Shown piece by piece: positions 9,216 to 54,447 of a stretch of DNA of 64,000 nt. Under the pieces are notes generated by a model, which saw nothing but the letters and a program-made list of their open reading frames with translations, had not been told where the DNA came from and searched no databases. The DNA comes from an uncultured Flavobacteriales bacterium (lineage in GTDB: Bacteria; Bacteroidota; Bacteroidia; Flavobacteriales; BACL11): NCBI GenBank assembly GCA_905478185.1, contig CAJQHO010000025.1, forward strand, positions 15,499-79,498. Reading direction: 5' to 3'. How positions within the stretch are numbered: the stretch's first letter is position 1; each line of letters opens with the position of its first letter. The position numbers and the translations under genes were made by a program.

Positions 9216-9233
9216 CAACAAACTATTTATAAA

Positions 9234-9347: not shown

Positions 9348-9374
9348 ATTCTGATTTTGAGTACTTCTGAAGTG

Positions 9375-10211: not shown

Positions 10212-10257
10212 TAAAAAGTATTTTTCTAATTATTGTTGTTTGTTTAGCTTTAAACCT

Positions 10258-10265
10258 TATATTTG
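10258..10265 (+). promoter_or_regulatory. -7 box (TAnnTTTG) for the M43 protease gene
   Basis: TATATTTG upstream of the ATG at 10298. Confidence 0.45.
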
Positions 10266-10297
10266 TAACCTTAAATTTAACAAACAAATCATTAGAT

Positions 10298-13793: not shown

Positions 13794-15242
13794 TTATTTT
13801 TCTAGTTCAGTTTTTAGTAATTGGTTTGCTAATTTAGGATCAGCTTGCCCTTTTGAAAGCTTCATTACTTCCCCCATAAACAAACCAATCAACCCTTTTT
13901 TACCTCCTTTATATTGCGCAACTTTTTCTGGGTATTTTGCAATTGCTTGAGTAATGTATTCTCCTAAAGCATCACTATCACTTTCTTGCACCCAATTATT
14001 TTCAGTAGCAATTTCTTCAGCAGTTTTATTGCTACTTAACATTGCAGGAAAAACTTTTGATGTAGCAACTGAGTTACTTATTCTTTCATCATCAACTATA
14101 CTAATAAGTGTTGCTAATTGTTCAGTTGAAATGCTGAAATCTGATATTGAAACTGCATTTTCATTAAGGTAAGATTTTACACTTCCGTTAACAAAATTGG
14201 CAGCTGATTTAAAGTTTTTTGTATGTGAGCATAGCTCATTATAATATAGTGCAATCCCTTTTTCGTCTATAAGAATATTGGTATCATAATCTGACAAACC
14301 GTATTCAGTTGTAAATTTACTGTATAGTTCTTTCGGTAAAGGTGGTAGTTGACTCTTAACTTGTGAAATATATTCTTCAGTTACAATTACGGCTTGTAAA
14401 TCTGGTTCCGGGAAGTATCTGTAGTCATTTGCTTCCTCTTTATGTCGCATGGAAATAGTAGTGTTGTTTGCAGCATTAAAACTTCTTGTTTCATGCACAA
14501 CAGTTCCTCCTTCCTCTAATATTTCAATTTGTCTGTCAATTTCAAATTCGATTGCTCTTTTTACATTTCTTGTTGAGTTCATATTCTTTACCTCAACTTT
14601 AGTTCCGAATTCTGTAGCTCCTTTAAGCATTACTGAAATATTTGCATCACATCTTAAGGATCCTTCCTCCATATTTCCATCACAAATATCTAGGTAACGA
14701 ACTAATTTTCTCACTTCATTTATGTATTGATAAGCTTCATCTGATGATCTAACATCAGGTTCAGACACAACCTCAACTAAAGGTACACCTGCTCTATTTA
14801 AATCAACTAAAGTGTGGAAAGGATCTAAATCATGAATAGATTTTCCAGCATCTTCCTCCATATGAATTCTAGTGATTTTAATGTCTTTAGGATTTCCATC
14901 TGCATCTTTAATAGTGATTACCCCACCGTTACAAATAGGTGTAGTGTCCTGTGTTATTTGATATCCTTTAGGTATATCAGCATAAAAGTAATTTTTACGA
15001 GCATATTCATTTCTTTCTCTGATATCTGAACCAACTGCTATACCTAGCCGCACAGCATATTCAATAACTTTAGCATTTGATTTGGGTAGAGTTCCAGGGT
15101 GGCCTAATGAAATTACTGATGTTTTTGTATTGGGTGTAGCCCCATAAATATTCTCATCAGACGAATATGCTTTTGTTTTTGTAAGTAATTGTGCATGGAC
15201 TTCAAGCCCAATCACAACTTCATATTTATCTCTTAAACTCAT
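13794..15242 (-). CDS. gatB: Asp-tRNA(Asn)/Glu-tRNA(Gln) amidotransferase subunit B
   Basis: YEVVIGLEVHAQL... and a full-length GatB pattern including the C-terminal YqeY-like tail. Confidence 0.95.
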   Translation of the reverse strand: MSLRDKYEVVIGLEVHAQLLTKTKAYSSDENIYGATPNTKTSVISLGHPGTLPKSNAKVIEYAVRLGIAVGSDIRERNEYARKNYFYADIPKGYQITQDTTPICNGGVITIKDADGNPKDIKITRIHMEEDAGKSIHDLDPFHTLVDLNRAGVPLVEVVSEPDVRSSDEAYQYINEVRKLVRYLDICDGNMEEGSLRCDANISVMLKGATEFGTKVEVKNMNSTRNVKRAIEFEIDRQIEILEEGGTVVHETRSFNAANNTTISMRHKEEANDYRYFPEPDLQAVIVTEEYISQVKSQLPPLPKELYSKFTTEYGLSDYDTNILIDEKGIALYYNELCSHTKNFKSAANFVNGSVKSYLNENAVSISDFSISTEQLATLISIVDDERISNSVATSKVFPAMLSSNKTAEEIATENNWVQESDSDALGEYITQAIAKYPEKVAQYKGGKKGLIGLFMGEVMKLSKGQADPKLANQLLKTELEK

Positions 15243-16585
15243 TATTCGAATAATACTTTTCCTGATTCTATTTGTTTCCCTCCTATATTAAGGCTGTAAA
15301 AATACAAACCATTCGCTAAATTTCCTCTTTTAATAGTAGTTTGATTTTTACTAATTGCAACATCCATTAATTTTGCTCCTAGGCTATTGTAAAGTGTAAA
15401 GTTATTAGCAGTATTATTAGTAATTGTAATCTGATTTGTAGCAGGAACAGGGTAGATGCTAGGTTTTAAATTTGTTTCAATTGTATGAGTTGTTCCACTA
15501 GTTAAATCAATAATATAAAGTCCTGTTTGCATATCAGAAACAATAATATTCCCAGATGATAAATAAGGGTAAACTCCCCAAGCTCCTTTATAGGACGCAT
15601 GGCTATTAGGAGCATAAGTATCATATTCCCAAGTTTGAACAGGATTACTTGGGTCAGAAATATCAAATACTCTTAAGCCATCATGGTAATAAGGAATATA
15701 GACCAAATCTCCTTTTATAATACCATTATGTGCCATTGATTGCGAATCAACTCCAGAATTAAAAGTAGCTAAAACTGAAATATTACTTAAGTCGGAAACA
15801 TCTAGTATTTTCACGTCATATCCATGATTTTCATCTTGCATAATATATAGCGTTCCATCATCATTAAGCCATCCAGAATGGTTATAGCCAGCATCTGGAT
15901 AAGATGTTAATGATGCTAATTCAACCCAAGCTGTTCCTGGTAATAAATCAAGGTAATGAAAATCTATAATTCTAAACCCATCATTTCCGCAATTAAGATA
16001 TGCTGTGTCGTTACGAACATAAGCATCATGAACATGCCCTACGGCATTGTATGAATAAATTAAAGTCGGATCTTTTGGATCAATTAGACTATATATATCC
16101 ATTGCTGAATTAGAAGCACAAGCATATAGTTTTGCTGTTGCTGTATCAATAAAAATATTATGAGATTTTGTAAATAGCGCATTGGAGTCATAAACGGTAG
16201 TTACTGAGTCAGGTAAAGTTGAAATGTCAATTATTTGTAATGTAGACGAACTTCCTTCATCACAAACTACATATAAGTACCCTTGGAAATCATGATAATC
16301 TCTATGGATTACTCCACCACCTTGGTATGCTCCTGCAACATAAGCAACTTGTGTTGCATTTGCAGGGTCAGTTACATCAAAAAAGTGGGTACCATCAGTT
16401 GATCCTATAATTGCTATTTCACTTCCGTTTACTTCCAGACCCCAACATTCGTTATAAGTATTGTTGTAAGCCCAAGAACCCATTAAAGTTGTGTCCTGCC
16501 AATTGTATAAAAGCGTTCCTGTTTGTTGTGCATTTGAGCTGATGCCAAGAAGAGCAATAGCTACTATTAAAATAAATTTATTCAT
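15242..16585 (-). CDS. secreted beta-propeller protein (choice-of-anchor B / LVIVD-repeat-like) with T9SS C-terminal domain
   Basis: Signal peptide and repeated propeller-like blades. C-terminal PSIYPVPATNQITI...GLYFYSLNIGG...GKVLFE. Its stop overlaps the gatB start (TAATG). Confidence 0.55.
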   Translation of the reverse strand: MNKFILIVAIALLGISSNAQQTGTLLYNWQDTTLMGSWAYNNTYNECWGLEVNGSEIAIIGSTDGTHFFDVTDPANATQVAYVAGAYQGGGVIHRDYHDFQGYLYVVCDEGSSSTLQIIDISTLPDSVTTVYDSNALFTKSHNIFIDTATAKLYACASNSAMDIYSLIDPKDPTLIYSYNAVGHVHDAYVRNDTAYLNCGNDGFRIIDFHYLDLLPGTAWVELASLTSYPDAGYNHSGWLNDDGTLYIMQDENHGYDVKILDVSDLSNISVLATFNSGVDSQSMAHNGIIKGDLVYIPYYHDGLRVFDISDPSNPVQTWEYDTYAPNSHASYKGAWGVYPYLSSGNIIVSDMQTGLYIIDLTSGTTHTIETNLKPSIYPVPATNQITITNNTANNFTLYNSLGAKLMDVAISKNQTTIKRGNLANGLYFYSLNIGGKQIESGKVLFE

Positions 16586-17394
16586 TATATTGATTCGATT
16601 AGTTCTTTAATAATTAGGGTTAGTTTTGGTTCAGCTACTTCTGATACTTTTTGAATTTCTTCATGAGTTACCTTTTGTATTTTACCAGGGACTCCTAAAT
16701 CAGTAATTACGGACATGGCAAAACAAGGAATATTCATATGACGAGCAACAATCACTTCAGGAGCAGTGGACATTCCAACAGTATCTCCACCAATAATTCT
16801 CATGTGATTGTATTCAGCTGGAGTTTCTAAAGTTGGACCTGTAAGTGCAACATAAACTCCTTTTTGTAAAGGCAGATTATTTGCCTTTGCAATGCTTTCT
16901 GCTTTACTGATTAAATCTCTGCAATAAGGTTCACTCATATCAGGGAATCTAGGGCCTAGTTCAGCAATATTTTCGCCAATTAACGGATTAGGAATAAGGT
17001 TGATATGATCACTTAAAATCATTAAATCACCTACTTCATAATCTGGGTTTACACCTCCACTAGCATTAGATACTACTAGGTTTTCTATTCCTAAAAGTTT
17101 CATTACTCGCACAGGAAAAGTAACTTTATCCATAGGGTAGCCCTCATAAAAATGAAAACGTCCTTGCATAGCGACTACTCCTTTTCCTCCTAGATTTCCG
17201 AAAATTAATCTTCCACTATGTCCCTCAACAGTTGAAAGAGGAAAGTTAGGAATGTCTTTATAAGAAATAGAATGTTTAATGTCAATTTCATTAACTAAAC
17301 CTCCAAGCCCTGTACCTAAAATGATACCAACTTTTGGTTGGTTATTTGTTTTTTTTTGTAAGAATTCAGCTGATTCTTTAATTTTTTGCAACAT
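16585..17394 (-). CDS. purine nucleoside phosphorylase (PNP family, trimeric type)
   Basis: GHSGRLIFG...MQGRFHFYEGY...VSNASGG...GDTVGMSTAPE motifs. Confidence 0.9.
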   Translation of the reverse strand: MLQKIKESAEFLQKKTNNQPKVGIILGTGLGGLVNEIDIKHSISYKDIPNFPLSTVEGHSGRLIFGNLGGKGVVAMQGRFHFYEGYPMDKVTFPVRVMKLLGIENLVVSNASGGVNPDYEVGDLMILSDHINLIPNPLIGENIAELGPRFPDMSEPYCRDLISKAESIAKANNLPLQKGVYVALTGPTLETPAEYNHMRIIGGDTVGMSTAPEVIVARHMNIPCFAMSVITDLGVPGKIQKVTHEEIQKVSEVAEPKLTLIIKELIESI

Positions 17395-33165: not shown

Positions 33166-33727
33166 AGAAATAATATTTTGTTGAAGTAATATGATACATT
33201 ATCGAATCTTGATAGACTCCGTTTATATTAAATATTGGAAAAATAGTTGTGTCATTTTGAATTGATGTTATTTGAAGTTCATTAATATCTAATTTATTAA
33301 TTAAAAATTTCTGAGTATTACCATTTTGAAAATTTATCTCTAAAGTATCTGATTTTTTTAAGTAACTATGTTGCTCATCATTGTAAGTAATATCATTATA
33401 ATCTACATATGTTTCTATTAAGCTCTGACTTTCATTAAAACTCCAAATCCTAGACTTAAAAACAGTTGATTCACCGGATGTAATTACGTATTGAAGTGTA
33501 TTTGATATAAAAAGACTTTCATTTACACTGTTATTATAAATAATATTTGTGTTTCCATCAATATAATTTCCTCCAAAAATCCCTTCTTCTAAAAAATTAT
33601 TTTCGACATTAAGATTCCAAGCGTTATTTAGAGAAATTGGTTCTATTACTACTTCATTGTTTCCCTCTTTCTTACAAGAACTAAATAGTATAGGCAAACA
33701 AAGTAATATAAGTAGTAGTTTTTTCAT
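33155..33727 (-). CDS. hypothetical lipoprotein
   Basis: MKKLLLILLCLPILFSSC lipobox. The first 38 nt are 36/38 identical to the 5' end of the esterase gene at 53005. Confidence 0.45.
   Translation of the reverse strand: MKKLLLILLCLPILFSSCKKEGNNEVVIEPISLNNAWNLNVENNFLEEGIFGGNYIDGNTNIIYNNSVNESLFISNTLQYVITSGESTVFKSRIWSFNESQSLIETYVDYNDITYNDEQHSYLKKSDTLEINFQNGNTQKFLINKLDINELQITSIQNDTTIFPIFNINGVYQDSIMYHITSTKYYFLKQ
33690..33727. repeat. 38-nt signal-peptide 5' module, copy 1 (partner at 52968..53005)
   Basis: ATAGGCA[AA]CAAAGTAATATAAGTAGTAGTTTTTTCAT versus ATAGGCA[TG]CAAAG...: 36/38 identical by eye. Encodes MKKLLLILLC. Confidence 0.8.
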
Positions 33728-35983: not shown

Positions 35984-36520
35984 TTAGTTTTTTAATTTAA
36001 AAATATGTGGCAAATTACGCCCAATTTCGTCATAATCCAAACCATATCCTACAACAAAATCATTTGGGATAGATTTCCCAATAAAATCAATAGGAATTTC
36101 TTTTGTATAGGCCTCTGGCTTAAAGAGTAATGTAGCAACTTTTATATCTGCCACCTCTTCTTTTTCAAGTAATGATATTATTTTTTCTAAGGTAATACCG
36201 GTATCAATTATATCTTCAAGGATTATGATATTTCTATTTCTAATATCTTGTCCTAGACCAATTAGTTTGCTTACTTCTCCAGTTGTTTGAGTTCCCGAGT
36301 AAGATGAAAGCTTAACAAAAGAAATTTCGGTATTTGGTAGAGTTATCTTCTTCATTATATCTGAAGAAAACATGAAAGAACCATTCAATACAGAAATAAA
36401 TAAAGGATCTTTTATTCTTGCGTTATTTATATTATGAGCCATAGAATGTACTATAGCAGCAATTTCAGTCTCCGGAATAAAAACTTCAAATGTTTTATTA
36501 TGTAAAGTAATTGGTTTCAT
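35984..36520 (-). CDS. hpt: hypoxanthine phosphoribosyltransferase
   Basis: PRPP motif IIILEDIIDTGITL and VVGYGLDY. Confidence 0.9.
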   Translation of the reverse strand: MKPITLHNKTFEVFIPETEIAAIVHSMAHNINNARIKDPLFISVLNGSFMFSSDIMKKITLPNTEISFVKLSSYSGTQTTGEVSKLIGLGQDIRNRNIIILEDIIDTGITLEKIISLLEKEEVADIKVATLLFKPEAYTKEIPIDFIGKSIPNDFVVGYGLDYDEIGRNLPHIFKLKN

Positions 36521-37451
36521 TTAACAATTTCAGTTTCTCTTCCCACATATCTTTGATAGTTAAAAGTTTTCTTTCTGGATTTTGCTCACTTATATTAATA
36601 GATGAGGTAGAAGTGACACCATTAAGCTGATCAACCACAGCTAATCCTTCACCTAATTCATAATAATCTACTGTTACAAAATTAGGGAATTTATTAGTTT
36701 GGGTTTGACAATTTAGAGCTCTATTAATAAAAAATGGATTTGCATTTACATCATTTGATTCATTGTAGAGGCCATATCCTAAGGTAGCATCAGTAACAAA
36801 ATGATTGAAGATAAATAAATCATTTAAAGGATCTCCTCTGTTAAAATCACATGTAAAATCATTGATATTGCCAACACTATAATGCGTTTCTACAGCATAC
36901 TCCCATACATAATGATACCAATCTTGTGAACTACTTGCATCATCAACATCAGAAAAGATAACTAGTCTATTATCATTATCAATCATGTTTTGTAATGTAG
37001 GCCATGTTGCATTATGTGTGTATAAATAATTAGATAATCCTGATTGGTTAATTTCATCCTCTATGTCATTAGTTGTCACATAACATTCTAGTATGATTGT
37101 TATAACTTCATTTGGATTATTATCTAAAAATATTTTGATGTCATTAAATATATCAGATAACGGGATGTATCCCAGGGCAATTATTGAATGATATACCACT
37201 GGAGTGCCAAATAAATCATTATAAACATCAATCATCAAACCTCTAACTCCATCATTTAATTGAGATGCTATATTATAGGTTTGATTAGGAAATAATAATC
37301 CATCTTGATCTGAGTTAAAAGCATTATGTGTTGTTAAATAAGCAACCTCATTATATTGCTTGGAACATAAATCCAATGAACCATTACATTGTGCATGGCT
37401 AATCTGTAGTGAGATCACTAGTAGTAATAATATAGATATAGTTTTCTTCAT
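36498..37451 (-). CDS. secreted PI-PLC X-domain-like phosphodiesterase
   Basis: Signal peptide, then CNGSLDLCSKQYNEVAYLTTHNAFN...GVRGLMIDVY, the pattern of the eukaryote-like PLC-like phosphodiesterase family. Confidence 0.55.
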   Translation of the reverse strand: MKKTISILLLLVISLQISHAQCNGSLDLCSKQYNEVAYLTTHNAFNSDQDGLLFPNQTYNIASQLNDGVRGLMIDVYNDLFGTPVVYHSIIALGYIPLSDIFNDIKIFLDNNPNEVITIILECYVTTNDIEDEINQSGLSNYLYTHNATWPTLQNMIDNDNRLVIFSDVDDASSSQDWYHYVWEYAVETHYSVGNINDFTCDFNRGDPLNDLFIFNHFVTDATLGYGLYNESNDVNANPFFINRALNCQTQTNKFPNFVTVDYYELGEGLAVVDQLNGVTSTSSINISEQNPERKLLTIKDMWEEKLKLLNETNYFT

Positions 37452-37453
37452 GT

Positions 37454-39160
37454 TTAATTATTACACCATACTTTTCTTAAAGTTAATTGCTCTTCTGTTG
37501 GTTTTTTTATTCTTACAAGTTCCAAAAGTTTGTAATGATTCCCAACAGCTAAAGATATGGTTTTTTCTGAAAACTTCTTTTTTATTGTTAAAGTGACATT
37601 CTCTTTACATTCTTTCAAGATGTCTGAAAGTTTTCCTTCAATTTTCTCCCCATTTACTTTTGTAATTTCATCTTCAGGAGCAATTCCTTTTTTATCAGTA
37701 ACCGAATTCGGTTCTACCTTTTTAATAATGATTTTACCATCCTCTTTTACAGCTATAAATCCAAAATATTGAGCAGATAGATTAGGGTTTTTCTTTTCTT
37801 TTAATTCCAAACCAGCTACTTCCAAAACCGTTTTTAAAGTTGGGATGTAATCCTCAGTTCCATAAATATGATTTTCAAAAATTTCAGCTACTTTCAGCCC
37901 TCCAAATTTCACGCATATATTTCTAAAATCATCTTCAGAATATCCTTTTCCTTTAAGTGCAAAATCTTCATAGAGTTCTCTCATTGCAGAGTGTAAACTT
38001 TCTTTTCCATCTGTATTGTTAATGATTTCCAAATCTATCATAAGCATACAAAGTGCAGCATCTGGATAAATAGATGTTTTTCTGTCAGGAGCCCCTAGTT
38101 TGTAACCATCTAACCAATTATCAAAACCACTATCAGCAACCGAAAGATTGAATCTTCCATAGTTTATAAGATGTCTTTCCAAGTTCTGATTTTGAGTTTT
38201 TGCAAATTCCTCCCAATTAAACACTCCAGAATTATATAACATCATATCTCCCATATAAGTTGTAACTCCCTCTGCAACAAAACCAGTTCGGAAATAATTT
38301 TCCTTGGTATAATCGTAAGGGTACATTTCTACTGGTCGGATGGATTTTATATTCCAAGTATGGTAGAGTTCATGAGAACAAACTCCCAATAAATCTTCAT
38401 ATCTTTTATCCATTATTTCTTCTCCAGGACCTAAAAGTAAAACTGTGTTCTTAGTGTGTTCTACTCCATGATAACTTCTGTAAGGGGTGATTTGGAAAAA
38501 GTAATGATATTCATCAACTGGGAATCCGCCAAAGTGTTTTATCTGACTTTTAGTGAAAGCTGTGAAGTCCTTGTTTAATTTTTCCCAATCTGGTTTGCAT
38601 TCCCCTTGAAACCATAAATGAAATGTAATTCCATCTACTTCATATGTTCCGTGCTGTAAAGTATCCGAACAAATAATTGGTGATTCTGAAAGCAAGTCAT
38701 AACCCTTTACCGTAAGCATATTTTCTTCTTGCTCCATTGATGAGGCAATCTTATAATTTTTAGCAATATTTAATGCAATTTTATAGTCTTCTTCCATTCT
38801 ATCCACAATATAGAACATGCAGTGTACAGGATTTAAATACAATTGGTGTTCATCCAAATAACAAGCGCCTGCATCCAATTGGTTGGCATAAAAGTTATAA
38901 GTAACGGTAATTTCCATTGTTCCAGTTGTATCTACTTCCCATAAATCTTTAGTGATTTTCTTAAATGGAAGAGAATTGTTTTTTTCATCAAAAGCAGCCC
39001 ATTTTTGAATGTTTTGAGAGAAATTTGCTAACTCATATCTTCCAGGACGCCAAGCAGAAAGTTGAAACTGCATGCTTTTTGCTCCATTTGTTTTGGTAGT
39101 AAATTCAAAATCAACAAAGTGCCTATGTGGGTTGCTATATGAAATGGAATAACTTATCAT
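37454..39160 (-). CDS. M61 family metallopeptidase (glycyl aminopeptidase-like) with C-terminal PDZ domain
   Basis: HELYHTWN zinc motif in the M61 context. PDZ-like IIKKVEPNSVTDKKGIAPEDEITKVNG. Confidence 0.75.
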   Translation of the reverse strand: MISYSISYSNPHRHFVDFEFTTKTNGAKSMQFQLSAWRPGRYELANFSQNIQKWAAFDEKNNSLPFKKITKDLWEVDTTGTMEITVTYNFYANQLDAGACYLDEHQLYLNPVHCMFYIVDRMEEDYKIALNIAKNYKIASSMEQEENMLTVKGYDLLSESPIICSDTLQHGTYEVDGITFHLWFQGECKPDWEKLNKDFTAFTKSQIKHFGGFPVDEYHYFFQITPYRSYHGVEHTKNTVLLLGPGEEIMDKRYEDLLGVCSHELYHTWNIKSIRPVEMYPYDYTKENYFRTGFVAEGVTTYMGDMMLYNSGVFNWEEFAKTQNQNLERHLINYGRFNLSVADSGFDNWLDGYKLGAPDRKTSIYPDAALCMLMIDLEIINNTDGKESLHSAMRELYEDFALKGKGYSEDDFRNICVKFGGLKVAEIFENHIYGTEDYIPTLKTVLEVAGLELKEKKNPNLSAQYFGFIAVKEDGKIIIKKVEPNSVTDKKGIAPEDEITKVNGEKIEGKLSDILKECKENVTLTIKKKFSEKTISLAVGNHYKLLELVRIKKPTEEQLTLRKVWCNN

Positions 39161-40763: not shown

Positions 40764-43700
40764 TTACTGCACAACCAACTTCCTTTGCTCAGTTATCCCC
40801 TTATGCATTAACTTTACAAAATAGATGCCTTTTGCTTGTTTGCTGAGGTCAATTTGTTGTAGTCCACCATGAATGGTTTCATTGGCAACTAGCTTTCCAA
40901 AGATAGAATACACTTCTACTTTCATAGTGTTGGCATCCGTACGGATATTAAATATTCCTTTAGTAGGGTTCGGGTAAATTAAGGTATTAGTATTGATACT
41001 CTCACCTTCTTCAATAGCTAAAATATTTTGGCCATTAATATTGATATTGTCCATATAAAAATGATTACCATAATCATTAATAGCAACAAAACGCACCATA
41101 ATTGTATCTCCATTCAGTCCCCAAGTACTTAAATTGATACTATCACTTGCCCAGCTGCCACAAGTAGGAGACCAAGCACTTCCTTCATAAGGTACAGTTT
41201 GCAAATCTGGACCGATAGCTCCATAAATAGAATCCCAAGTGCTACCGCAATCAGTAGAGATATCAATTCTTAATCCATCATCATAACCACTTGCATATCC
41301 GGAATATGCATAGTCGTAAGTTAACCAGTTTTGCGCACTTACGCCATTTCCTAAGGACACCTTGTTACTAATTAAATAAGCCTCTTCACCAGGATATTGA
41401 ATCCAGTAATGATTAACATAAGCAGTAGTTGTCGGAAGACAATCTATTCCAAAATCAACAACAGTAGAAAGCCAACTAAAAGATGGTGATTCTAATTCCC
41501 ATGCTGTAGGAGGAAAGTTGCTATTCTCAAAATCTTGAGCAAAATTTATTGAATTTGTTATTAATGATATTGAATCAGCATAAGTAATGAAATCAGTATA
41601 AGATTGTGAGCTTGTTCCAAAAGCGTCAGTTACGGTTAAAGTAACATCATACTTTCCAGGATTTGAGTAAACAACAACTGGGTCTTCCTGAGTAGATGAA
41701 GAAGGAGTCCCTCCAGGGAAAGACCATTGCCAAGAAGCACTGCTTAATCTTACAGCTGAATGATCAACAAACTTTACCGTATCATTTATACAATTAATTT
41801 CTAATCTATCTGCAGCAATTTGTGCTGATGGCGGGGTGTTTTCATAAAAATCAATTTCATAAGCGCTTCTGTTAGTTCCATTTTGTAAAATCCCCTCACG
41901 ATAATAAGGGATTAACTGTGTTGAATAGGTGTTTTTAGGCAAATTAACGTCATATATATCCCAATCAGCCATAGAATTATTTCTGTAGTAAACAGACTCC
42001 CTTGTTCCTATATACACCCCATTTCCTCCTCTTTGATGTTCAATATTAGTAACATTAATATTATCAAGAGTTGGTGTACTCCAATTTATCCAGTTTTGTC
42101 CACCATCTACCGATTTAAAAACTTCATACCCTTCAGCATCTTGCACTCCGCCATACATACTGCATCTTGCAATCCAAAGTGTATTTTCGTCATAACTACT
42201 TATAGATATATCATATGGAATCCAATCCTGACCATTGATATTTGTTGGGGTAATTTCAATCCAAGTATTTCCTGCATCTGAAGATCTGTAAATATGTTTA
42301 GTTCCCCACCATGATGGCCAAGTAGCTACATAAATTACATCAGGATTACTCCATGCTACCTCAACAGATGTTACTTTGTCATTAAAATGATAAACAGGAG
42401 AATAACTTGCACCATTATTTTTTGATAGCCAAAGAGTTGTATCTTCTCCAATATAGTTCCAATTATAACACCTTGGGTCAAATTCCATTTGGGAAGATTC
42501 TCCTGTTATATAGGATGCATTTGGTTTTTTAGCTAAAGAGAAGCCTGAAATTCCAATTGTCCTATCTCCTGAAAGTACCTTTCCACCATAGTCACTATAA
42601 GCAACTCTTGGATTTCCAAAATTTACAAAGCCTCTTATCCCATCACCACCATCAGTACATAGCCAATCATTTATGTAAGTATTCCCATCTTTAAGCATTG
42701 TTCCATTATGGTAAGTTCCACCAAGCATTACTTCTCCATCCTTAAAGCCTGCACCAAATCCCCAAAAATCAGCTCCCGCAATACCGTATTGTTTTTTGTA
42801 AATACTATCACCTGCATTATCAGAATAAAACACACCTCCATCACATGCAAACCACAGATCATTACCAAAGTAGTTGATATCATGAATATCTGCATGAACA
42901 TACCCTTTTTTATGAGGTTCACTCCATTTGGCAGGGCACGTAAAGCTGACACCATTGTCAAAAGATATCCAATGCTGAACTCCTCCAACATGAATAATGT
43001 CAGCATTTGTTGGGTTTACTGCCAAACCTAAATCATAATAATATTGTCCTCCATCATCTGATCCATCCGGTTGCCAGCCCATCATATTTATATTTACTGA
43101 ATCTGGCGGACCTGCAGGTTGAGGTCCACAACATTCAAAAGTCCAATTCTCTCCTTTATCATAACTAATATATACTCCATATAACCCACTTCCTCCATTT
43201 GCATGACCTGTTGCAAGGGCAACAATTTTATCTGGTGATGCAGGGCTAACGGCAATTTCTGTTCTTCCTTGCTCATCTCCAGTTCCAGGGTTAGGCCATC
43301 CGTTTGTAAAGTTTGTAAGTGTATTCCCTCCATTATCTGATCTGTAAAAAAGAGTACTATCTCCCGCTTGTTTTACAAAATACATTGTATTTGGATTGCT
43401 AGGATGAAACTCAATTTCTAAAAAATTACCATTCATAATCAAAGTGAAGTTATTCCCTCCATCTATTGATTTAAATAGACCTTCATCAGATGCGATAAAT
43501 AATATTTGATTATTAGTAGTTGATAGTTTTATATCCTTTGTTGAATGGGATAAAGCAGTAAATGTTGCATTCCCAATAACTGTCCAGTTTACCCCTCCAT
43601 CATATGATTTATAAATTCCTCCATTCCCACTGATGTAGATAATTTCTGGATTTGTAAAATCTATTTCAATAGCATATACTCCATTTAGAAATAAATCCTG

Positions 43701-44168
43701 CGTAATTAAATTCCAGTTATCACCTTTATCAATTGTTTTCCATGCACCAGCAGTAGCTGAACCAGCATATAATACATTTGGATTACTTGCAGCTTGTTCT
43801 ATTGTATATACATGAGCAGCACCAGGGGCATAACTTCTACTTGCAGCATCCTTATCGAAATCCCAAGGTCCTACACATTCCCATTGATTACTGCTTTTTG
43901 AAGTTTTAAGAGTTGGTTTAGCGTTTGAGAATCTACTAATACCCCTTAACCATCTTTTGTAGTACTGTGTGTGTTTATTTTTTACTAATTCATTCTTTTT
44001 ATAATAATCGGTATAGGCATTAATTACTTCTCCTTCATCAGGATTTTCTGCATACATCAATTGTGCCCAATGCGGCAAATTTTCAGCATTTGCATTGTAT
44101 TTCATTTCCACTTGCGCAACAAGTGAAAACTTGAAAGTGATAAAAAGTAGGAATAGTAATTTCTTCAT
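40764..44168 (-). CDS. large secreted BNR/sortilin(VPS10)-type beta-propeller protein with PKD, MAM-like and T9SS C-terminal domains
   Basis: Many Asp-box-like repeats (S.D.G.NW / S.D.G.TW). PKD-like WSFPGGTPSSS...YDVTLTVT. C-terminal LIYPNPTKGIFNI...GIYFVKLMHKG...KLVVQ. Confidence 0.7.
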   Translation of the reverse strand: MKKLLFLLFITFKFSLVAQVEMKYNANAENLPHWAQLMYAENPDEGEVINAYTDYYKKNELVKNKHTQYYKRWLRGISRFSNAKPTLKTSKSSNQWECVGPWDFDKDAASRSYAPGAAHVYTIEQAASNPNVLYAGSATAGAWKTIDKGDNWNLITQDLFLNGVYAIEIDFTNPEIIYISGNGGIYKSYDGGVNWTVIGNATFTALSHSTKDIKLSTTNNQILFIASDEGLFKSIDGGNNFTLIMNGNFLEIEFHPSNPNTMYFVKQAGDSTLFYRSDNGGNTLTNFTNGWPNPGTGDEQGRTEIAVSPASPDKIVALATGHANGGSGLYGVYISYDKGENWTFECCGPQPAGPPDSVNINMMGWQPDGSDDGGQYYYDLGLAVNPTNADIIHVGGVQHWISFDNGVSFTCPAKWSEPHKKGYVHADIHDINYFGNDLWFACDGGVFYSDNAGDSIYKKQYGIAGADFWGFGAGFKDGEVMLGGTYHNGTMLKDGNTYINDWLCTDGGDGIRGFVNFGNPRVAYSDYGGKVLSGDRTIGISGFSLAKKPNASYITGESSQMEFDPRCYNWNYIGEDTTLWLSKNNGASYSPVYHFNDKVTSVEVAWSNPDVIYVATWPSWWGTKHIYRSSDAGNTWIEITPTNINGQDWIPYDISISSYDENTLWIARCSMYGGVQDAEGYEVFKSVDGGQNWINWSTPTLDNINVTNIEHQRGGNGVYIGTRESVYYRNNSMADWDIYDVNLPKNTYSTQLIPYYREGILQNGTNRSAYEIDFYENTPPSAQIAADRLEINCINDTVKFVDHSAVRLSSASWQWSFPGGTPSSSTQEDPVVVYSNPGKYDVTLTVTDAFGTSSQSYTDFITYADSISLITNSINFAQDFENSNFPPTAWELESPSFSWLSTVVDFGIDCLPTTTAYVNHYWIQYPGEEAYLISNKVSLGNGVSAQNWLTYDYAYSGYASGYDDGLRIDISTDCGSTWDSIYGAIGPDLQTVPYEGSAWSPTCGSWASDSINLSTWGLNGDTIMVRFVAINDYGNHFYMDNININGQNILAIEEGESINTNTLIYPNPTKGIFNIRTDANTMKVEVYSIFGKLVANETIHGGLQQIDLSKQAKGIYFVKLMHKGITEQRKLVVQ

Positions 44169-44178
44169 AATTAGGTAA

Positions 44179-44207
44179 TAAAAAAGGTCGCATAATTGCG
44201 ACCTTAA
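44179..44207 (-). terminator. intrinsic terminator after metK
   Basis: Minus strand AAGGTCGCA-ATTA-TGCGACCTT followed by TTTTT. Confidence 0.75.
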
Positions 44208-44222
44208 AATTAGTTTTTTTTA

Positions 44223-51189: not shown

Positions 51190-52005
51190 ATGAATTTACA
51201 TAACTCTTCAAGATGGTATTTGCACCTTGTTTATTATCAGTTAGTAAAACTCAGTAGGTTTTTTACAAATAATTTTTTTGGAAGAAAAGATCATCAATTT
51301 TTATTTATTTTAACTCCACCTTATTGTGGATCTACTTTGTTAAACCAGATTCTTTCTACTTCTAATAATTTGAGTTGTAATAATCATTTAGGTGTTAGGG
51401 AAGGGCAATTACTCCCTGAAGTAAAAGACATGATGTTTTTAAATAAAGGTTGGCATAATGAAGTGCATTATGATTGGGCGTTTATCAAAAAAACTTGGAT
51501 GAAATATTGGGATCAAAGGATGGGTATACTAATGGATAAAAGCAATCCTAATATGATGAGAGTGCCTGCAATAAAGAAAGAATTTCAAAACTCAACCTTT
51601 ATTGCAATGGTAAGAAATCCATATGCTCAAGTTGAAGGAATTATGAGAAGAAATGGAGCGACAGCAGAATATGCTGCAAAGTTTGCTTTAAAATGTTTGA
51701 GGTATCAAAAGCAAAATAAACTTTCAGAAAAAGAAAATATTCTTTTTACTTCTTATGAAGAACTATGTGATACAAAATATGAAGTAGTAGAGAAGATTAA
51801 AGAATTTATTCCTGAAATAGGAAATATTGATTCTGATTTAGAATTTTCAGCACATAACTTTAAGACTGATTGCAAAATGAAAATCCAAAATCTAAATAAA
51901 GAAAAAATAAAGAAGATAAACAAGGAGAATATGGGTATTATAAACTCTTACTTTAATAAAGAAATAGATTTGCTAGAATTTTTTGGCTATTCAATAATTG
52001 AATAA
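51190..52005 (+). CDS. putative sulfotransferase-family protein
   Basis: LFILTPPYCGSTLL resembles the PAPS 5'-phosphosulfate-binding loop, and FIAMVRNPYAQVEG the 3'-phosphate-binding motif. Motif-level call only. Confidence 0.4.
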   Translation: MNLHNSSRWYLHLVYYQLVKLSRFFTNNFFGRKDHQFLFILTPPYCGSTLLNQILSTSNNLSCNNHLGVREGQLLPEVKDMMFLNKGWHNEVHYDWAFIKKTWMKYWDQRMGILMDKSNPNMMRVPAIKKEFQNSTFIAMVRNPYAQVEGIMRRNGATAEYAAKFALKCLRYQKQNKLSEKENILFTSYEELCDTKYEVVEKIKEFIPEIGNIDSDLEFSAHNFKTDCKMKIQNLNKEKIKKINKENMGIINSYFNKEIDLLEFFGYSIIE

Positions 52006-52039
52006 CAACTTGCTTTTCTACACTTCCATCATCATAGAT

Positions 52040-53005
52040 TTAAAATAGAGGTTGATTTGTAGCTATTTTCACTTCTTGACCAAGCACATTAATAGTACTT
52101 ACTAATTCTTTATTCAACCTAATTGACTGTTCAGTTATACTTGTTGGACTATTAGAAATTTGACTAAAAAAGTTCCATATTTCTTCACTTGCCCAAAAAT
52201 CATCATTTCCCCATGGAGCCACATCAAACCATGTATGTAGTCCATTATATACTTTGTAGAACCAAACTTTATCCCCAGTATTAATATTGTGATATTTTGT
52301 TACATCAGTAATATTATTATCATTATTTATATCTAATAAAGAGTAACTAGTATCTACACTGCAAGAATTATAATTTACCCAATTAGTAACAATGTCAGGA
52401 GCTGACATATAAGGCCCATAATTTGGAAAGTTTCCTCCATTGAAATTAATCACATTGTCATTTGTTCCATGTAATACTAATACTGAGATATTACTAGAAG
52501 GTAAACAAATATTCATATAGTCAAAAATTGTTCCTGCTAATGGAGCAATAGCATCAAAAATATTTGAGTTTTGACATCTTGCTAAATGAAATGATATATC
52601 TCCTCCATAAGAAAAACCAGTAGCAAATATTCTGTTTTCATCAAATTGATACTGACTCTGTAACGAATCATTTAATGCATGAATAAAATCAACATCAGAC
52701 AAACCACTACAATTCCAGGATGTTAGACCTGAAGTTCCATTATCTCCATCAATTAATGCTGTAGGATAACAAACCGCAAAATTATTTTGATCAGATAAGA
52801 TATTAAAAGCAGTGCTTGACATAATCTGGCCTCCATTCCCACCCCACCCATGAAAAGCATAAACAATTGGTGAGTTTGCTGGTAGATTATTTGGAATATG
52901 TAAATAAAACTCTCTTTGTATATTATTATCAGTAAAATAAAAAGGACCATCCTGCCCAAACCCAATCATAGGCATGCAAAGTAATATAAGTAGTAGTTTT
53001 TTCAT
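52040..53005 (-). CDS. secreted esterase, PHB-depolymerase/LpqC-like alpha/beta hydrolase, with a truncated C-terminal tail
   Basis: Signal peptide. YAFHGWGGNG and nucleophile elbow GFSYGG. The C-terminus ..VLGQEVKIATNQPLF ends at a TAA, and the same frame continues IYDDGSVEKQVVIQ. Confidence 0.6.
   Translation of the reverse strand: MKKLLLILLCMPMIGFGQDGPFYFTDNNIQREFYLHIPNNLPANSPIVYAFHGWGGNGGQIMSSTAFNILSDQNNFAVCYPTALIDGDNGTSGLTSWNCSGLSDVDFIHALNDSLQSQYQFDENRIFATGFSYGGDISFHLARCQNSNIFDAIAPLAGTIFDYMNICLPSSNISVLVLHGTNDNVINFNGGNFPNYGPYMSAPDIVTNWVNYNSCSVDTSYSLLDINNDNNITDVTKYHNINTGDKVWFYKVYNGLHTWFDVAPWGNDDFWASEEIWNFFSQISNSPTSITEQSIRLNKELVSTINVLGQEVKIATNQPLF
52968..53005. repeat. 38-nt signal-peptide 5' module, copy 2 (partner at 33690..33727)
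   Basis: See copy 1. Confidence 0.8.
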
Positions 53006-53022
53006 AATATTAGTTTATTGGT
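52992..53022. repeat. 31-nt 5' UTR + start-codon module, copy 1 (partner at 53391..53421)
   Basis: AGTAGTTTTTTCATAAT[A/C]TTAGTTTATTG[G/T]T: 29/31 identical by eye, in front of two adjacent genes. Confidence 0.75.
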
Positions 53023-53404
53023 TGTAGTTATATCCTTCCCAAAATCCTGAAGAGCCATCTGTTGATGAGCTCCATTCTCCACTTCCATAATTACCATTTA
53101 ATTGCCCTTCAAAGGCAACACCATAAGTTCCTGTTCCAATGGCAGCATCAAAAATCCCACTATTTGATACAGTGCCAATTAAATCAACCCCCTCAGGAGC
53201 AGCAGAAGAAATAGCGGTACCATTAATCTCTCCTGAAGAAGAAATATCAGCATTCCAAGCCCCAACATTAGTACTGTCTTGCTGATAGTAATATCCTGAC
53301 CAATATCCAATAAATGGAGAACTAGCAGTGTCATCTTCCTCTTCTTTCTTACAAGCTGAAAAGATAAGTGATACTGCCAATAATGTGTAAAGTAGTTTTT
53401 TCAT
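53015..53404 (-). CDS. small Gly/Ser/Tyr-rich lipoprotein
   Basis: Lipobox SLIFSAC; 129 aa. Lies between two tail-bearing secreted-protein genes. Confidence 0.45.
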   Translation of the reverse strand: MKKLLYTLLAVSLIFSACKKEEEDDTASSPFIGYWSGYYYQQDSTNVGAWNADISSSGEINGTAISSAAPEGVDLIGTVSNSGIFDAAIGTGTYGVAFEGQLNGNYGSGEWSSSTDGSSGFWEGYNYNQ

Positions 53405-53421
53405 AATCTTAGTTTATTGTT
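53391..53421. repeat. 31-nt 5' UTR + start-codon module, copy 2 (partner at 52992..53022)
   Basis: See copy 1. Confidence 0.75.
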
Positions 53422-53435
53422 AATCTATTGTTTTA
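53416..53435. repeat. 20-nt exact gene-junction repeat, copy 2 (partner at 33146..33165)
   Basis: See copy 1. Confidence 0.75.
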
Positions 53436-54404
53436 TTCTATAACTATTCTTTTGTCTACTGTTCCATCATCATAGATGTAAAATAGAGGTTGATTTATTC
53501 CTTTTGTTTCTCTTCCAAGAACATCTGTAACTCGCACTACTTGTCTTTTTGTATTTATCTCTGAAACTGAGCTAGCGTTAGGGCAGTAGTTTCCGTCAGG
53601 AGCTAATAAAGGAAGTTTATATTGAGTATCAGTTATTAATGCATGCATCAATATATCCGTGCTTTGTAAAAGTGTAGCATTGTAAGGCTCCCATTCATTA
53701 GCAATCCCTTGTGCAGTTTGGGCGTCATCCAATATCCCCATATAACTTACAATTGCCCAGTACATATATTCAATCATCATGCATTCATAATCGCAAGTCC
53801 AATCATCATAATGATACCAAGCAGAAGCAGGATAAGGATTCGGAATAGTCATAAATTGACCTCCTCTTGCTACATCCATAGCATCCGACATTAAAGATGA
53901 ATTGGCCTGCATGCTAAAGGCATTAGGATATATATTGGTATGGCCTACATGGTTTATTGTATGTATAATTTCCTCTACTGTAGCATCATCTCCCCAATGT
54001 CCTGTTTGTGTAGGATCAATTTCGAAATTATATAAAACTGCACTTACACCATCTCCTTGATAATAATTTTCAAAGGTGTTCATTGCTGTATTCCCATCAT
54101 CATAAAATATAGGCATTAGCGCACTTTCACTTGTAAGTTGAGATTCAATTAAAGGATCGTCCACTATTCCATCTTCATTGTTGTCCAATAGTTCAGCTGC
54201 AACTGCTGCTGCATGTAAAACTTTTGCATCTGATATTGTGCTTTCAGCATAAATACTAAAGCATCCTAACACATCCACATATTTTGTGAAAAGTGCAAGG
54301 GCTGGGTCAGTTGCATTTGGGTTTGGGTCTATTGTAAAACAAACAGTGTTTTGTGCATTTATCAATATTGGAAAAGTAAATAGCAGTGTAAATATTTTAT
54401 TCAT
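53433..54404 (-). CDS. hypothetical secreted protein with C-terminal LGRE..NQPLFYIYDDGTVDKRIVIE tail
   Basis: Signal peptide from the ATG at 54404 (MNKIFTLLFTFPILINAQ). No catalytic motif I can assign. It carries the intact C-terminal tail. Confidence 0.45.
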   Translation of the reverse strand: MNKIFTLLFTFPILINAQNTVCFTIDPNPNATDPALALFTKYVDVLGCFSIYAESTISDAKVLHAAAVAAELLDNNEDGIVDDPLIESQLTSESALMPIFYDDGNTAMNTFENYYQGDGVSAVLYNFEIDPTQTGHWGDDATVEEIIHTINHVGHTNIYPNAFSMQANSSLMSDAMDVARGGQFMTIPNPYPASAWYHYDDWTCDYECMMIEYMYWAIVSYMGILDDAQTAQGIANEWEPYNATLLQSTDILMHALITDTQYKLPLLAPDGNYCPNASSVSEINTKRQVVRVTDVLGRETKGINQPLFYIYDDGTVDKRIVIE

Positions 54405-54425
54405 TTCTCTTATTTTAGATTTGAG

Positions 54426-54433
54426 CAAACTTA
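54426..54433 (-). promoter_or_regulatory. -7 box (TAnnTTTG) for the 54404-52040 secreted-protein operon
   Basis: Minus strand TAAGTTTG, about 21 nt before the ATG at 54404. Back-to-back with the rsgA box. Confidence 0.4.
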
Positions 54434-54447
54434 CAAAATATAACAAC

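Follow-up and report, generated by a model that had tools for sequence, protein, structure and literature searches.

A short C-terminal tail on unrelated secreted proteins of marine Flavobacteriales, a putative T9SS export signal

The locus and its shared tail

The window analysed here is a 64-kb stretch (64,000 nucleotides) of DNA from an uncultured Flavobacteriales bacterium. It contains three co-oriented genes on the minus strand, g1, g2 and g3, as a first-pass annotation of the sequence had described. g1 (53433-54404, minus) encodes 323 aa from the ATG at 54404, begins with the signal peptide MNKIFTLLFTFPILINAQ and ends in the short tail described below. No Pfam or NCBIfam family matched g1, and none of its 2,011 homologues in metagenomes has a name; the tail is kept in the g1 orthologues of loci L001, L009, L017, L025, L026 and L080. 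As annotated, g2 (53015-53404, minus) is a Gly/Ser/Tyr-rich lipoprotein of 129 aa with the lipobox IFSAC, the lipoprotein signal being its sole family match, and it is without the tail. The exact g2 protein is present on 55 public contigs, and in the syntenic relative L080 an unrelated 200-aa lipoprotein stands in its place. The third gene, g3 (52040-53005, minus), is a nonsense allele of a probable PHB-depolymerase-type esterase, with 321 aa and a premature TAA at 52040-52042. One of three family models supports the esterase assignment, with the body scoring 25.3 bits against PF10503 (cutoff 23); the body is below cutoff for NF050058 (8.5e-33; 114 versus 150) and TIGR01840 (47.4 versus 107.85).

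The three genes had been placed behind one promoter. A promoter-like box of the Bacteroidota -7 type, TAAGTTTG, is indeed located at 54426-54433 (minus), 22 nt upstream of the g1 ATG. However, its motif class, TANNTTTG, occurs in the window at chance frequency (114 observed versus 108.6 expected) with no enrichment, so that the box as promoter of g1-g2-g3 is plausible but unproven. Motifs of the TANNTTTG type are absent from the 28-nt spacer between g1 and g2 and from the 9-nt spacer between g2 and g3.

The same window encodes T9SS components, namely the C-terminal part of the sortase PorU (3-1016, plus; NF033707, 3.9e-116) and the shuttle/outer-membrane protein PorV (1073-2254, plus; NF033710, 488.9 bits, cutoff 250). 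A canonical long type A CTD lies at 12761-13003 (plus), at the end of ORF 10196-13003, and two further ones end ORFs 15242-16606 and 40764-44219 (both minus). These three score 49.7, 46.0 and 51.1 bits against TIGR04183 (cutoff 23) and PorU's own CTD also passes the model, in agreement with the four full CTDs counted earlier. The window holds the short tail together with PorU, PorV and CTDs of the long type A.

The bodies of g1 and g3 are unrelated, and both genes share a C-terminal tail of ~46 residues. The g1 tail (53436-53570, minus; 45 aa, SVSEINTKRQVVRVTDVLGRETKGINQPLFYIYDDGTVDKRIVIE) has the predicted cleavage motif NAS↓SVSE, the arrow marking the cut, and three predicted strands, VVRVT, LFYIYD and DKRIV. 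The tail consensus is …T-T-A-I-x-E…NKELLKVTDLLGRETKG.KN.PLFYIYDDGTVEKRIVIE. The tail sequences read as first described, and the DNA core of 53455-53496 (g1) and 52017-52058 (g3) was confirmed to be identical at 39/42 positions, or 38/42 in the codon-aligned 42-nt frame. We ran a DNA HMM (nhmmer) trained on 86 tails from other genomes over the 64-kb window. It matched the g1 tail (E = 5.5e-31), the g3 tail (E = 1.3e-18) and one marginal remnant. The similarity between the g1 and g3 tails is far beyond chance.

The remnant is a candidate decayed third tail at 36528-36598 (minus), at the end of ORF 36498-37457 (E = 0.031, HMM positions 8-79); at the protein level the match is not significant (i-E = 0.48). 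It reads …ERKLLTIKDM, a frameshift, GRETEIVK, a stop and NQLLYII, and the start of the next gene cuts off the remainder.

Extent and conservation of the tail family

The motif was sought on other secreted proteins and found on hundreds, so the idea of a shared signal stands. Scanning 185,579 species genomes with the pattern FYIYDDG, we obtained 346 tblastn-confirmed places, several per genome; conservation of FYIYDDG in this set is selected for, because it served as the scan pattern. The hosts are uncultured marine Flavobacteriales or Bacteroidota MAGs, with one exception labelled Thalassomonas. A profile search of 1.84 billion representatives retrieved, at E<=1e-3, no fewer than 3,854 protein clusters, of which 1,616 also pass E<=1e-10, and the match ends no more than 2 residues from the C-terminus in 149 of the 150 top clusters. 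The 78 complete tail ORFs have unrelated bodies of 95-1,338 aa. An obvious signal peptide is present in 65 of them, and in ~6 others it follows a non-ATG start. Carriers of the tail include esterases, phosphodiesterases, LRR proteins and many unknowns. The tail is thus a conserved C-terminal module and no private duplication of the g1/g3 operon.

The conserved block ends ~46 aa from the C-terminus, upstream of which the sequence belongs to the unrelated bodies. In the family logo (n = 86), counted over 46 aa from the putative cleavage site, an I (56/86) is accompanied by D-x-L-G-R (81, 79, 86 and 74 of 86 for D, L, G and R), then F-Y-I-Y, then E-K-[RK]. The Leu before FYIY is encoded by CTC, CTT, TTA, CTA or CTG, and the residue is always Leu. 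Judged from these sequences, the tail is under protein-level selection.

AF2 predicts the tail to be a single three-stranded β-sheet. Modelled alone, it has a pLDDT of 79 and strands at residues 12-16, 29-34 and 39-43; the same three strands appear at 289-293, 306-311 and 316-320 of full-length g1. Comparison with known CTD folds, as had been proposed, gave no significant match: in Foldseek the best match has E = 0.87, and the RemA CTD (chain 8gl6_D) ranks 17th with E = 1.8. Similarly, a sequence-profile search of the PDB returned nothing relevant.

The g3 tail and the DNA of the family

The TAA at 52040-52042 is in frame, where g1 has TAC, and hence the annotated g3 protein ends in ...NQPLF. 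The normal stop after VVIQ is also mutated, from TAA to TTA. The translated 5′ part of the tail (52043-52141, minus; SITEQSIRLNKELVSTINVLGQEVKIATNQPLF) is of the g3 type; its IN(V/T)(L/F)GQ signature is common to the examined esterase relatives P0149, P0153, P0419 and P0430, and the distant P0236 has INLLGQ. The untranslated 3′ part (51998-52039, minus; IYDDGSVEKQVVIQ) is orthologous to the tail of g4, a 579-aa phosphodiesterase/LamG gene that is the downstream neighbour of g3 and has been deleted in the lineage of the window. By blastn, the window from 52051 aligns to the g4 tail of L080 from 10338, and the alignment continues into a sulfotransferase gene. This convergent gene (51190-52005, plus; PF13469, 2.4e-10) overlaps with its last codons the end of the g4-derived tail, and in L080 it overlaps the g4 tail with the same geometry. 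Furthermore, GGAAGTGTAGAAAAG is common to the g3 tail and g4 and absent from the g3 tail of L080. As read from these alignments, the g3 tail is a recombinant of its own 5′ half and the 3′ half of the tail of the deleted g4. The junction must lie within 52027-52080 (minus), the interval of the conserved core AATCAACCTCTATTTTA.ATCTATGATGATGGA: on one side of it the bases specific to g3 end with GGTCAAGAA, and on the other those specific to g4 begin with AGTGTAGAAAAG.

The arrangement without g4 is also found in an independent metagenome contig (99.78% identical). A metagenome scan for the junction with a first exact pattern gave no match, and a shorter pattern found L084. An intact version of the recombinant tail, ending in VVIQ and a stop, is present in L084 and P0424, and the closest g3 homologues have 336 aa and an intact tail. 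The exact 321-aa product occurs on 15 contigs, and the 336-aa P0424, with an intact tail and one other residue different, on 25. The in-frame TAA is a real, segregating nonsense allele; a sequencing or assembly error was rejected as its cause, since the exact truncated protein is found on 15 independent contigs and the independent metagenome contig also has the arrangement without g4.

The first-pass annotation had taken the DNA identity between the g1 and g3 tails to exceed what the protein needs and to reflect recent copying or homogenisation in the operon. The excess is present, but its source is that rare codons have become fixed across the family. We compared 93 copies from some 40 genomes: 13% of all random pairs have an identity of at least 39/42 and 23% of at least 38/42, and pairs with the same 14 residues have a mean of 38.5/42. 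Rare codons are fixed at set positions throughout the family, CTC at 52% (background 3%), TAC at 77% (23%), ATC at 85% (11%) and GAG at 78% (24%), and the g1-g3 identity is for this reason no proof of recent copying. With an identity typical of the family, recent copying between g1 and g3 was rejected. Tail pairs from one genome are just slightly more alike than pairs from different genomes (82.7% versus 80.9%), which indicates little homogenisation at the operon or genome level, and concerted evolution within genomes was rejected on this small difference. RNA structure was likewise rejected as the reason for the fixed codons, as six tails were no more stably folded than their shuffled versions (z between -1.09 and +0.93). 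Covariation of Leu and Glu codons is marginal (p = 0.047, confounded by relatedness), and Rfam gave sub-threshold matches alone (E >= 0.007, all below the gathering score), mostly of the Leu_leader model over terminator hairpins.

Two further stretches of DNA are shared beyond the tail itself. A junction of ~93-106 nt, which runs from the tail end through the spacer into the beginning of the following signal peptide, is repeated with 94-96% identity at non-orthologous gene boundaries. The 30-nt signal-peptide sequence ATGAAAAAACTACTACTTATATTACTTTGC has 29 exact occurrences in 22 loci from many genomes. In addition, the g3 body is 98.4% identical to that of a genome which is otherwise 80-82% identical.

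Readings of the tail

Prediction of T9SS cargo normally rests on TIGR04183, PF18962 and TIGR04131. Type A CTDs (TIGR04183/PF18962) have 70-100 aa that form a seven-strand Ig-like β-sandwich, and type B CTDs have 150-235 aa with a cognate PorP/SprF shuttle gene alongside. Like a type A CTD, the tail is C-terminal on Sec-dependent cargo in T9SS-encoding Bacteroidota and has B-, D- and E-like motifs in the same order; unlike it, the tail has ~46 aa and three predicted strands, with neither the YPNP strand nor the central hairpin. Two more kinds of C-terminal T9SS signal, type B (TIGR04131) and type C (NF033708, ChiA-type), are also unlike type A in sequence. The proposed check of the C-termini with TIGR04183, TIGR04131 and Por_Secre_tail (PF18962), extended by NF033708, gave no match at E<=10 on segments of 46-120 aa or on full proteins, and the tail is unlike an ordinary type A CTD even with its upstream residues. 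g1, a repaired g3 and the 46-aa tail have no TIGR04183/PF18962 match at E<=1, and neither model matches at E<=10 the 75-aa C-termini of three tail proteins from other genomes. No PorP/SprF shuttle gene is adjacent to the tail genes here.

The fetched loci contain 16 long type A CTDs and 88 short tails. Iterating a type A HMM on the genomes of these loci recovered the 16 long CTDs and no short tail (0 of 88). When the short and the long sets were aligned with hhalign, the probability was 3.8% (P = 0.011) and the alignment was confined to the motif B strand. The Pfam lists of tail-bearing esterases are without PF18962, whereas P0253, a distant esterase homologue, has it. In P0253 a canonical PF18962 type A CTD directly follows the EKIW.FFS helix, in the slot of the short tail, and P0253 shares the lead-in T-S-A-x-E…NK with the short tail. 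In P0249 a dockerin fills the slot after this helix.

The closest published counterparts are the short CTDs of Prevotella intermedia (Ye et al. 2025, Open Biol 15:240335; PMC11969387), whose architecture was published as unique to that species. They extend 40-55 aa from the cleavage site and form one three-stranded sheet, the counterpart of long-CTD strands 3, 6 and 7. Their cleavage motif has a conserved Ile, and they have Gly and a basic residue in motif B, Tyr-Ile in D and a doubled basic residue in E; cleavage and glycosylation were demonstrated, and most are still detectable by HMMs built from long CTDs (PMC11969387). We likened the tail to them by this published description. The tail would have 45-46 aa if cut at [TS][TS]↓[SA]I.E, a site placed by analogy, and is also a single three-stranded β-sheet in the AF2 prediction. 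Its putative cleavage motif likewise contains a conserved Ile shortly ahead of strand 1. The candidate motifs B, D and E agree in order and in most key residues, with a Gly that never varies and a basic residue next to it in B, Tyr-Ile in D and Lys/Arg plus an extra basic residue in E. Each type coexists with long type A CTDs in one genome. On the other hand, P. intermedia belongs to the oral Bacteroidales and the hosts of the tail to uncultured marine Flavobacteriales. The tail is much more conserved, its FYIYDDG core (the scan pattern) varying little. The motif D Gly, absolutely conserved in P. intermedia, is replaced in the tail (P-L-F-Y), the motif B Tyr is absent, and the spacer between B and D has 7-9 aa rather than 1-6. 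The tail is missed by TIGR04183 and PF18962, unlike most P. intermedia short CTDs under long-CTD HMMs, and is known from sequence and prediction. The last 22 residues of the Porphyromonas gingivalis HBP35 CTD, which comprise motifs D and E, are enough to export GFP through the T9SS (review PMC10202324). The equivalent region of the tail is the conserved FYIYDDGTVEKRIVIE block, although the HBP35 signal is an engineered truncation of a long/medium CTD and the tail a natural, genome-wide class.

Taken together, the tail is probably a stripped-down and so far unannotated T9SS export signal of marine Flavobacteriales. This agrees with the earlier suggestion of a minimal or variant sorting signal, which is the best reading of a sequence that has no type A score and occurs on hundreds of secreted proteins; export, recognition and cleavage are what we infer. 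The carrier would cross the inner membrane by its Sec signal peptide, and the ~46-residue tail would then fold as a single three-stranded sheet. In this sheet the translocon and the PorV shuttle would find the equivalents of three CTD motifs: B, with D-L-L-G-R in the loop that follows strand 1; D, with F-Y-I-Y on strand 2; and E, with E-K-[KR] on strand 3. PorU would remove the tail, probably at [TS]-[TS]↓[SA]-I-x-E, 8-10 residues before strand 1. In the window, g1 would have an intact putative signal; the nonsense codon of g3 precedes motifs D and E, so that the esterase should be stranded in the periplasm or the gene inactivated.

If the tail is such a signal, the secretome of major marine degraders of organic matter has been systematically under-called, as the tail is invisible to TIGR04183, PF18962 and TIGR04131 yet forms the end of no fewer than 3,854 protein clusters from marine Flavobacteriales that are uncultured, abundant and streamlined. 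The short CTD architecture would then be a general solution that has arisen or persisted outside P. intermedia, and a conserved 46-aa tail of three strands would be an attractive minimal tag for work on recognition by PorV and the translocon.

It is unlikely that the tail is instead a module unrelated to the T9SS, such as a surface-anchoring or ligand-binding β-motif or the signal of another sorting pathway, with a convergent likeness to short CTDs. The tail does have no statistically significant homology to any CTD and is missing the motif D glycine, and its extreme conservation (again with FYIYDDG as the scan pattern) is unlike that of type A CTDs, which are loosely conserved and less than 40% identical (PMC12618676). 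Such a module would, however, have to account for the position at the protein end (149/150 top clusters) with a Sec signal at the other end, for the slot shared with the canonical type A CTD of P0253, and for the occurrence in genomes with T9SS genes and long CTDs. Nor does the tail have a hydrophobic helix or a basic end such as exosortase or rhombosortase signals have.

Even less probable is a reading in which the tail is first of all repeated DNA, an element for recombination or expression that is located at the ends of genes and translated only secondarily, with recent copying or conversion inside the operon as the cause of the g1-g3 identity. Residues are conserved through synonymous and even first-position changes of Leu codons, and the element is always in frame at the ORF end in the 3,854 protein clusters. 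The identity of g1 and g3 is what pairs drawn at random from the family typically have, within- and between-genome identities are 82.7% and 80.9%, and there is no stable RNA structure (z -1.1 to +0.9) or convincing covariation (p = 0.047). These points stand against the rare codons fixed at specific positions across the family, the recombinant g3 tail with loss of the gene between two tails, the ~93-106-nt junction recurring at non-orthologous boundaries with 94-96% identity and the 29 exact copies of the ATGAAAAAACTACTACTTATATTACTTTGC 30-mer in 22 loci, all of which a DNA repeat would explain. Finally, an ordinary full-length type A CTD with diverged first strands, in which upstream residues would restore the seven-strand β-sandwich, is very improbable: hhalign pairs the LLKITDLLGRE strand with the 'v.iyD..G..v' strand of the local type A CTDs and motifs B, D and E follow one another in the type A order overall, but C-termini of 75-120 aa and whole proteins have no TIGR04183/PF18962 match at E<=10 where real CTDs score 46-51 bits, conservation ends ~46 aa from the terminus with unrelated bodies upstream, AF2 predicts three strands only, and the overlap with the iterated type A HMM is zero.

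Alongside the export reading, it is conceivable, though we consider it rather doubtful, that the secreted-protein genes of this clade are cassettes whose near-fixed DNA ends act as homology handles for deletion, replacement and exchange of bodies between strains or loci. The 5′ end would be the ATGAAAAAACTACTACTTATATTACTTTGC 30-mer and the 3′ end the short-CTD core with its position-specific rare codons, and the nucleotide-level conservation of these ends would be no by-product. Three events at this locus could be read in this way, namely the loss of g4 by tail-tail recombination, the swap of g2 and the g3 body of 98.4% identity against 80-82%. If cassettes of this kind exist, the secretome would be modular and driven by recombination. 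As a variant, the fixed codons may serve to adjust translation at the point at which the export signal emerges, or to keep AT-only slippery runs out of it. Quite apart from these readings, the locus offers a concrete and testable case of repeated signal-coding DNA shaping gene content, with a tail that is recombinant, a nonsense allele that segregates and rare codons that are fixed.

Genes g1 to g3 and the tail family

Three co-oriented genes are found on the minus strand: g1 (53433-54404), an ORF for a 323-aa signal-peptide protein; g2 (53015-53404), an ORF for a Gly/Ser/Tyr-rich lipoprotein of 129 aa; and g3 (52040-53005), an esterase gene. Spacers on this strand of the window are 28 nt between g1 and g2 and 9 nt between g2 and g3. 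The Pfam Esterase_PHB match of g3 (25.3 bits) passes the cutoff of 23, and its likeness to extracellular PHA depolymerases scores under the cutoffs of those models in the Pfam/NCBIfam scan. The same Pfam and NCBIfam models assigned g1 to no family. The g1 family is very abundant in marine data (2,011 homologues at E ≤ 1e-5, without annotation) with His, Cys, Asp and Trp invariant at numerous positions, e.g., H148-x3-H152-x2-H155 and the Cys pairs C22/C48 and C204/C208; g1 is modelled poorly by AF2 (pLDDT 58.5), and its fold matches, to collagenase and PPEP peptidase domains, are weak and non-significant. The exact g2 protein is recorded on 55 contigs. One promoter had been assigned to the three genes. 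A promoter-like box (TAAGTTTG) is indeed present at 54426-54433, 22 nt upstream of the g1 start, but the motif class is not enriched: TANNTTTG occurs across the window at chance density (114 observed vs 108.6 expected), so a single promoter is plausible at most.

It is evident that g1 and g3 end in one tail, as the first-pass annotation reported, with a DNA core 39/42 identical. The shared signal envisaged there also occurs on proteins beyond this operon, at 346 tblastn-confirmed places in a scan of 185,579 genomes (one per species). The hosts are uncultured marine Flavobacteriales-type MAGs, including Cryomorphaceae BACL11, TMED6, UWMA, FRAM18 and NIOZ, with several copies per genome; the sole exception is labelled Thalassomonas. 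A 46-aa tail query matched 28 short metagenomic ORFs, all 28 of which end …LLKVTDLLGRETKG.KN.PLFYIYDDGTVEKRIVIE. In 79 fetched loci, 88 ORFs carry a terminal tail on unrelated bodies of 95 to 1,338 aa, and a signal peptide, often MKKLLLILLCLPMIGFGQ, opens about nine in ten of the complete tail ORFs. When 1.84 billion cluster representatives were searched with a profile of the tail, 3,854 clusters reached E ≤ 1e-3, 1,616 of them E ≤ 1e-10, and 149 of the 150 best matches end at the last residue or within 2 residues of it. The tail thus constitutes a large conserved family and not a local duplication.

In the window, a tail DNA HMM (nhmmer) found only the two described copies (E = 5.5e-31 and 1.3e-18) besides a marginal third match at 36528-36598 (E = 0.031). 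The minus-strand ORF at 36498-37457 encodes a 317-aa protein with a signal peptide and without a family, and its end resembles a frameshifted, truncated tail (…KLLTIKDM / GRETEIVK*NQLLYII; 36498-36620, minus strand), overlapping the following gene at its start. This stretch might tentatively be taken as a third, decayed tail.

The tail as a probable short T9SS signal

The first-pass annotation had set the tail apart from an ordinary type A C-terminal domain (CTD), and the model searches agree with this. TIGR04183, PF18962, TIGR04131 and NF033708 (type C) gave no match to the tail at E ≤ 10, even with 75-120 residues of context, although the same scan scored three long CTDs of the window at 46-51 bits and passed the CTD of PorU itself (28.8 bits, TIGR04183). 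A type A HMM iterated on the tail-bearing genomes gathered 16 long CTDs but did not pick up any of the 88 short ones. Alignment of short against long signals with hhalign placed only the LLKITDLLGRE strand on the 'v.iyD..G..v' strand (probability 3.8%, P = 0.011). With the fold searches also negative, the tail does not score as an ordinary type A CTD in these searches, upstream residues included.

The organism has a T9SS and uses long CTDs, since the window opens inside porU, the sortase gene, followed by porV for the shuttle protein (3-2254), 50 kb from the tail operon. AF2 predicts exactly three β-strands, both for the tail alone (pLDDT 79) and within g1. A PDB profile search and Foldseek were negative. 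The family logo starts with [TS]-[TS]-[SA]-I-x-E and three further residues, and continues as N-K-E-L-L-K-V-T-D-L-L-G-R-E-T-K-G-T-(K)-N-Q-P-L-F-Y-I-Y-D-D-G-T-V-E-K-[RK]-I-V-I-E, which gives a tail of 46 residues counted from [SA].

A study of Prevotella intermedia published in 2025 described 48 'short CTDs' of 40-55 aa, whose single three-stranded sheet corresponds to long-CTD strands 3, 6 and 7 (PMC11969387). The cleavage motif of these signals reads PT/GI, in which Ile is the most conserved residue; the invariant Gly of motif B precedes a basic residue, an Ile follows motif D, and in motif E the basic residue is doubled (PMC11969387). Their cleavage and glycosylation were seen in experiments, and in models they bind PorV in the manner of long CTDs (PMC11969387). 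The marine tail matches this architecture nearly throughout, but it lacks the motif D glycine and the motif B tyrosine, and its spacer between motifs B and D is slightly longer. The last 22 residues of a P. gingivalis CTD (motifs D and E) were sufficient for GFP export (review PMC10202324). Among relatives of the g3 esterase, close ones are of 336 aa with the short tail intact, and the distant homologue P0253 has a canonical PF18962 CTD in the tail's exact place, after the same helix and with a similar lead-in (T-S-A-x-E…NK); another relative, P0249, has a dockerin at this position.

Taken together, the T9SS genes, the three predicted strands, the likeness to P. intermedia, the P0253 replacement and the GFP precedent make it probable that the tail is a short T9SS CTD. 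The earlier idea of a variant sorting signal is thus backed by several indirect lines of evidence that converge and by a recent precedent from experiments. The tail would be recognised by PorV and the translocon and then be cleaved off by PorU. We propose a class of short CTDs in marine Flavobacteriales that is invisible to current HMMs and unannotated, which bears on T9SS biology and on the prediction of marine secretomes.

Codon conservation and recombination in the tail core

We compared codons in 91-93 tail copies from some 40 genomes. Across the family, particular positions of the tail core (e.g., window 53455-53496) hold nearly fixed rare codons: CTC for Leu (52% in tails vs 3% in the background), TAC for the first Tyr (77% vs 23%), ATC for Ile (85% vs 11%) and GAG for Glu (78% vs 24%). 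At neighbouring positions, TAT encodes the second Tyr in 97% of copies and GAT the first Asp in 100%. Protein-level selection is evident all the same, since five synonymous codons are used for the Leu. Recent copying between g1 and g3, proposed earlier from the 39/42 identity, is not borne out. In a codon-aligned 42-nt frame the pair is identical at 38/42 sites; random tail pairs reach at least 39/42 in 13% and at least 38/42 in 23% of cases, and residue-identical pairs average 38.5/42. The identity is therefore a property of the whole family, and a family-wide codon pattern together with a specific tail-tail recombination replaces the copying model. As causes of codon fixation, no stable RNA structure and no convincing codon covariation were found, an Rfam search of the tails gave no family at threshold, and homogenisation within genomes is slight (82.7% within vs 80.9% between); none of these accounts for the pattern.

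An in-frame TAA (52040-52042) interrupts the g3 tail; 14 further tail codons (IYDDGSVEKQVVIQ) are readable 3′ of it, and TTA stands in place of the normal g3 stop (51995-51997). In the syntenic contig L080 (GCA_902511985.1) the gene order is rsgA, g1, a 200-aa lipoprotein, g3 (336 aa), g4 and a convergent sulfotransferase, where g4 (8655-10394) encodes a 579-aa phosphodiesterase/LamG protein that also ends in a tail. In L082, a second contig, g4 likewise follows g3. In the window g4 is missing between g3 and the sulfotransferase, and the sequence from 52051 on is orthologous to the g4 tail and runs on into the sulfotransferase gene, overlapping it as in L080. The 5′ half of the g3 tail (INVLGQE…) is g3-specific; the related esterases P0419 and P0430 have nearly the same 5′ half (1-2 substitutions) and their own 3′ half, …YIYDDGTVEKRIVIE. 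By this comparison the g3 tail (51998-52141) is a g3/g4 recombinant. The junction is confined to 52027-52080, inside the conserved core, which is the signature of a deletion via recombination between two tail repeats.

The arrangement lacking g4 is not an assembly artefact, because L084, an independent metagenome contig, shows the same arrangement at 99.78% identity over 3,603 nt. The window and L084 differ at 8 sites, three of them within about 45 nt of tail core, and L084 has the Tyr codon TAC and a proper TAA after VVIQ. The exact truncated g3 product (321 aa) is found on 15 public contigs, and P0424 (336 aa, intact tail, one other residue changed) on 25. The nonsense codon is thus a real, segregating variant. 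Through it g3 loses motifs D and E, which, by analogy with CTD truncations, should block export of the esterase.

Possible exchange of cassettes, and sequences next to the tails

The g3 body (52160-53020) shares 98.4% identity over 861 nt with L080 7604-8461, whereas the flanks share merely 80-82%. The same esterase occupies at least four distinct genomic contexts, L080, L081, L091 and L092/L093 among them, with nucleotide identities of 93-98% for L080, L082, L091 and L092 and 87% for L081. These comparisons suggest that the esterase gene was recently exchanged between lineages or loci. At L080 6996-7598, an unrelated 200-aa lipoprotein gene stands in place of g2 (window 53015-53404) between conserved junction sequences. 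A junction module of 93-106 nt, consisting of the tail end, the stop, the spacer AACAATAGATTAACAATAAACTAAGATT and the next signal-peptide start (ATGAAAAAACTACT…), shows 94-96% identity at non-orthologous gene boundaries (window 53391-53483, L080 8576-8668 and L091 6948-7052). The next ATG overlaps or immediately follows the tail stop in 5 of 87 loci, four of them with an overlapping ATGA. The 30-nt signal-peptide DNA ATGAAAAAACTACTACTTATATTACTTTGC (MKKLLLILLC) has 29 exact copies in 22 loci of different genomes, two copies being in the window (52976-53005 and 33698-33727), and its carriers are unrelated genes, lipoproteins included. Such nucleotide conservation is unusually strong for a signal peptide. 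The identity of the g3 body, the esterase contexts, the g2 replacement, the junction module and the signal-peptide repeats together allow a model in which conserved ends would serve as homology handles for swapping secreted-protein cassettes.

A near-identical terminator hairpin (AAAACCCACTCAAATGAGTGGGTTT) lies directly 3′ of the tail stop in 17 of 87 tails (e.g., in loci L007, L012, L019, L030, L038, L045, L058, L063, L067, L070 and L079) and is absent from the window. In 13 of the 17 the hairpin precedes GGTGGGCC…TTCGAAC, a sequence that resembles a tRNA 3′ end in reverse complement; genuine tRNAs were called by ARAGORN in just two loci, L029 (Met) and L056 (Phe). This element may be the remnant of something like an att site, or else an intergenic repeat.
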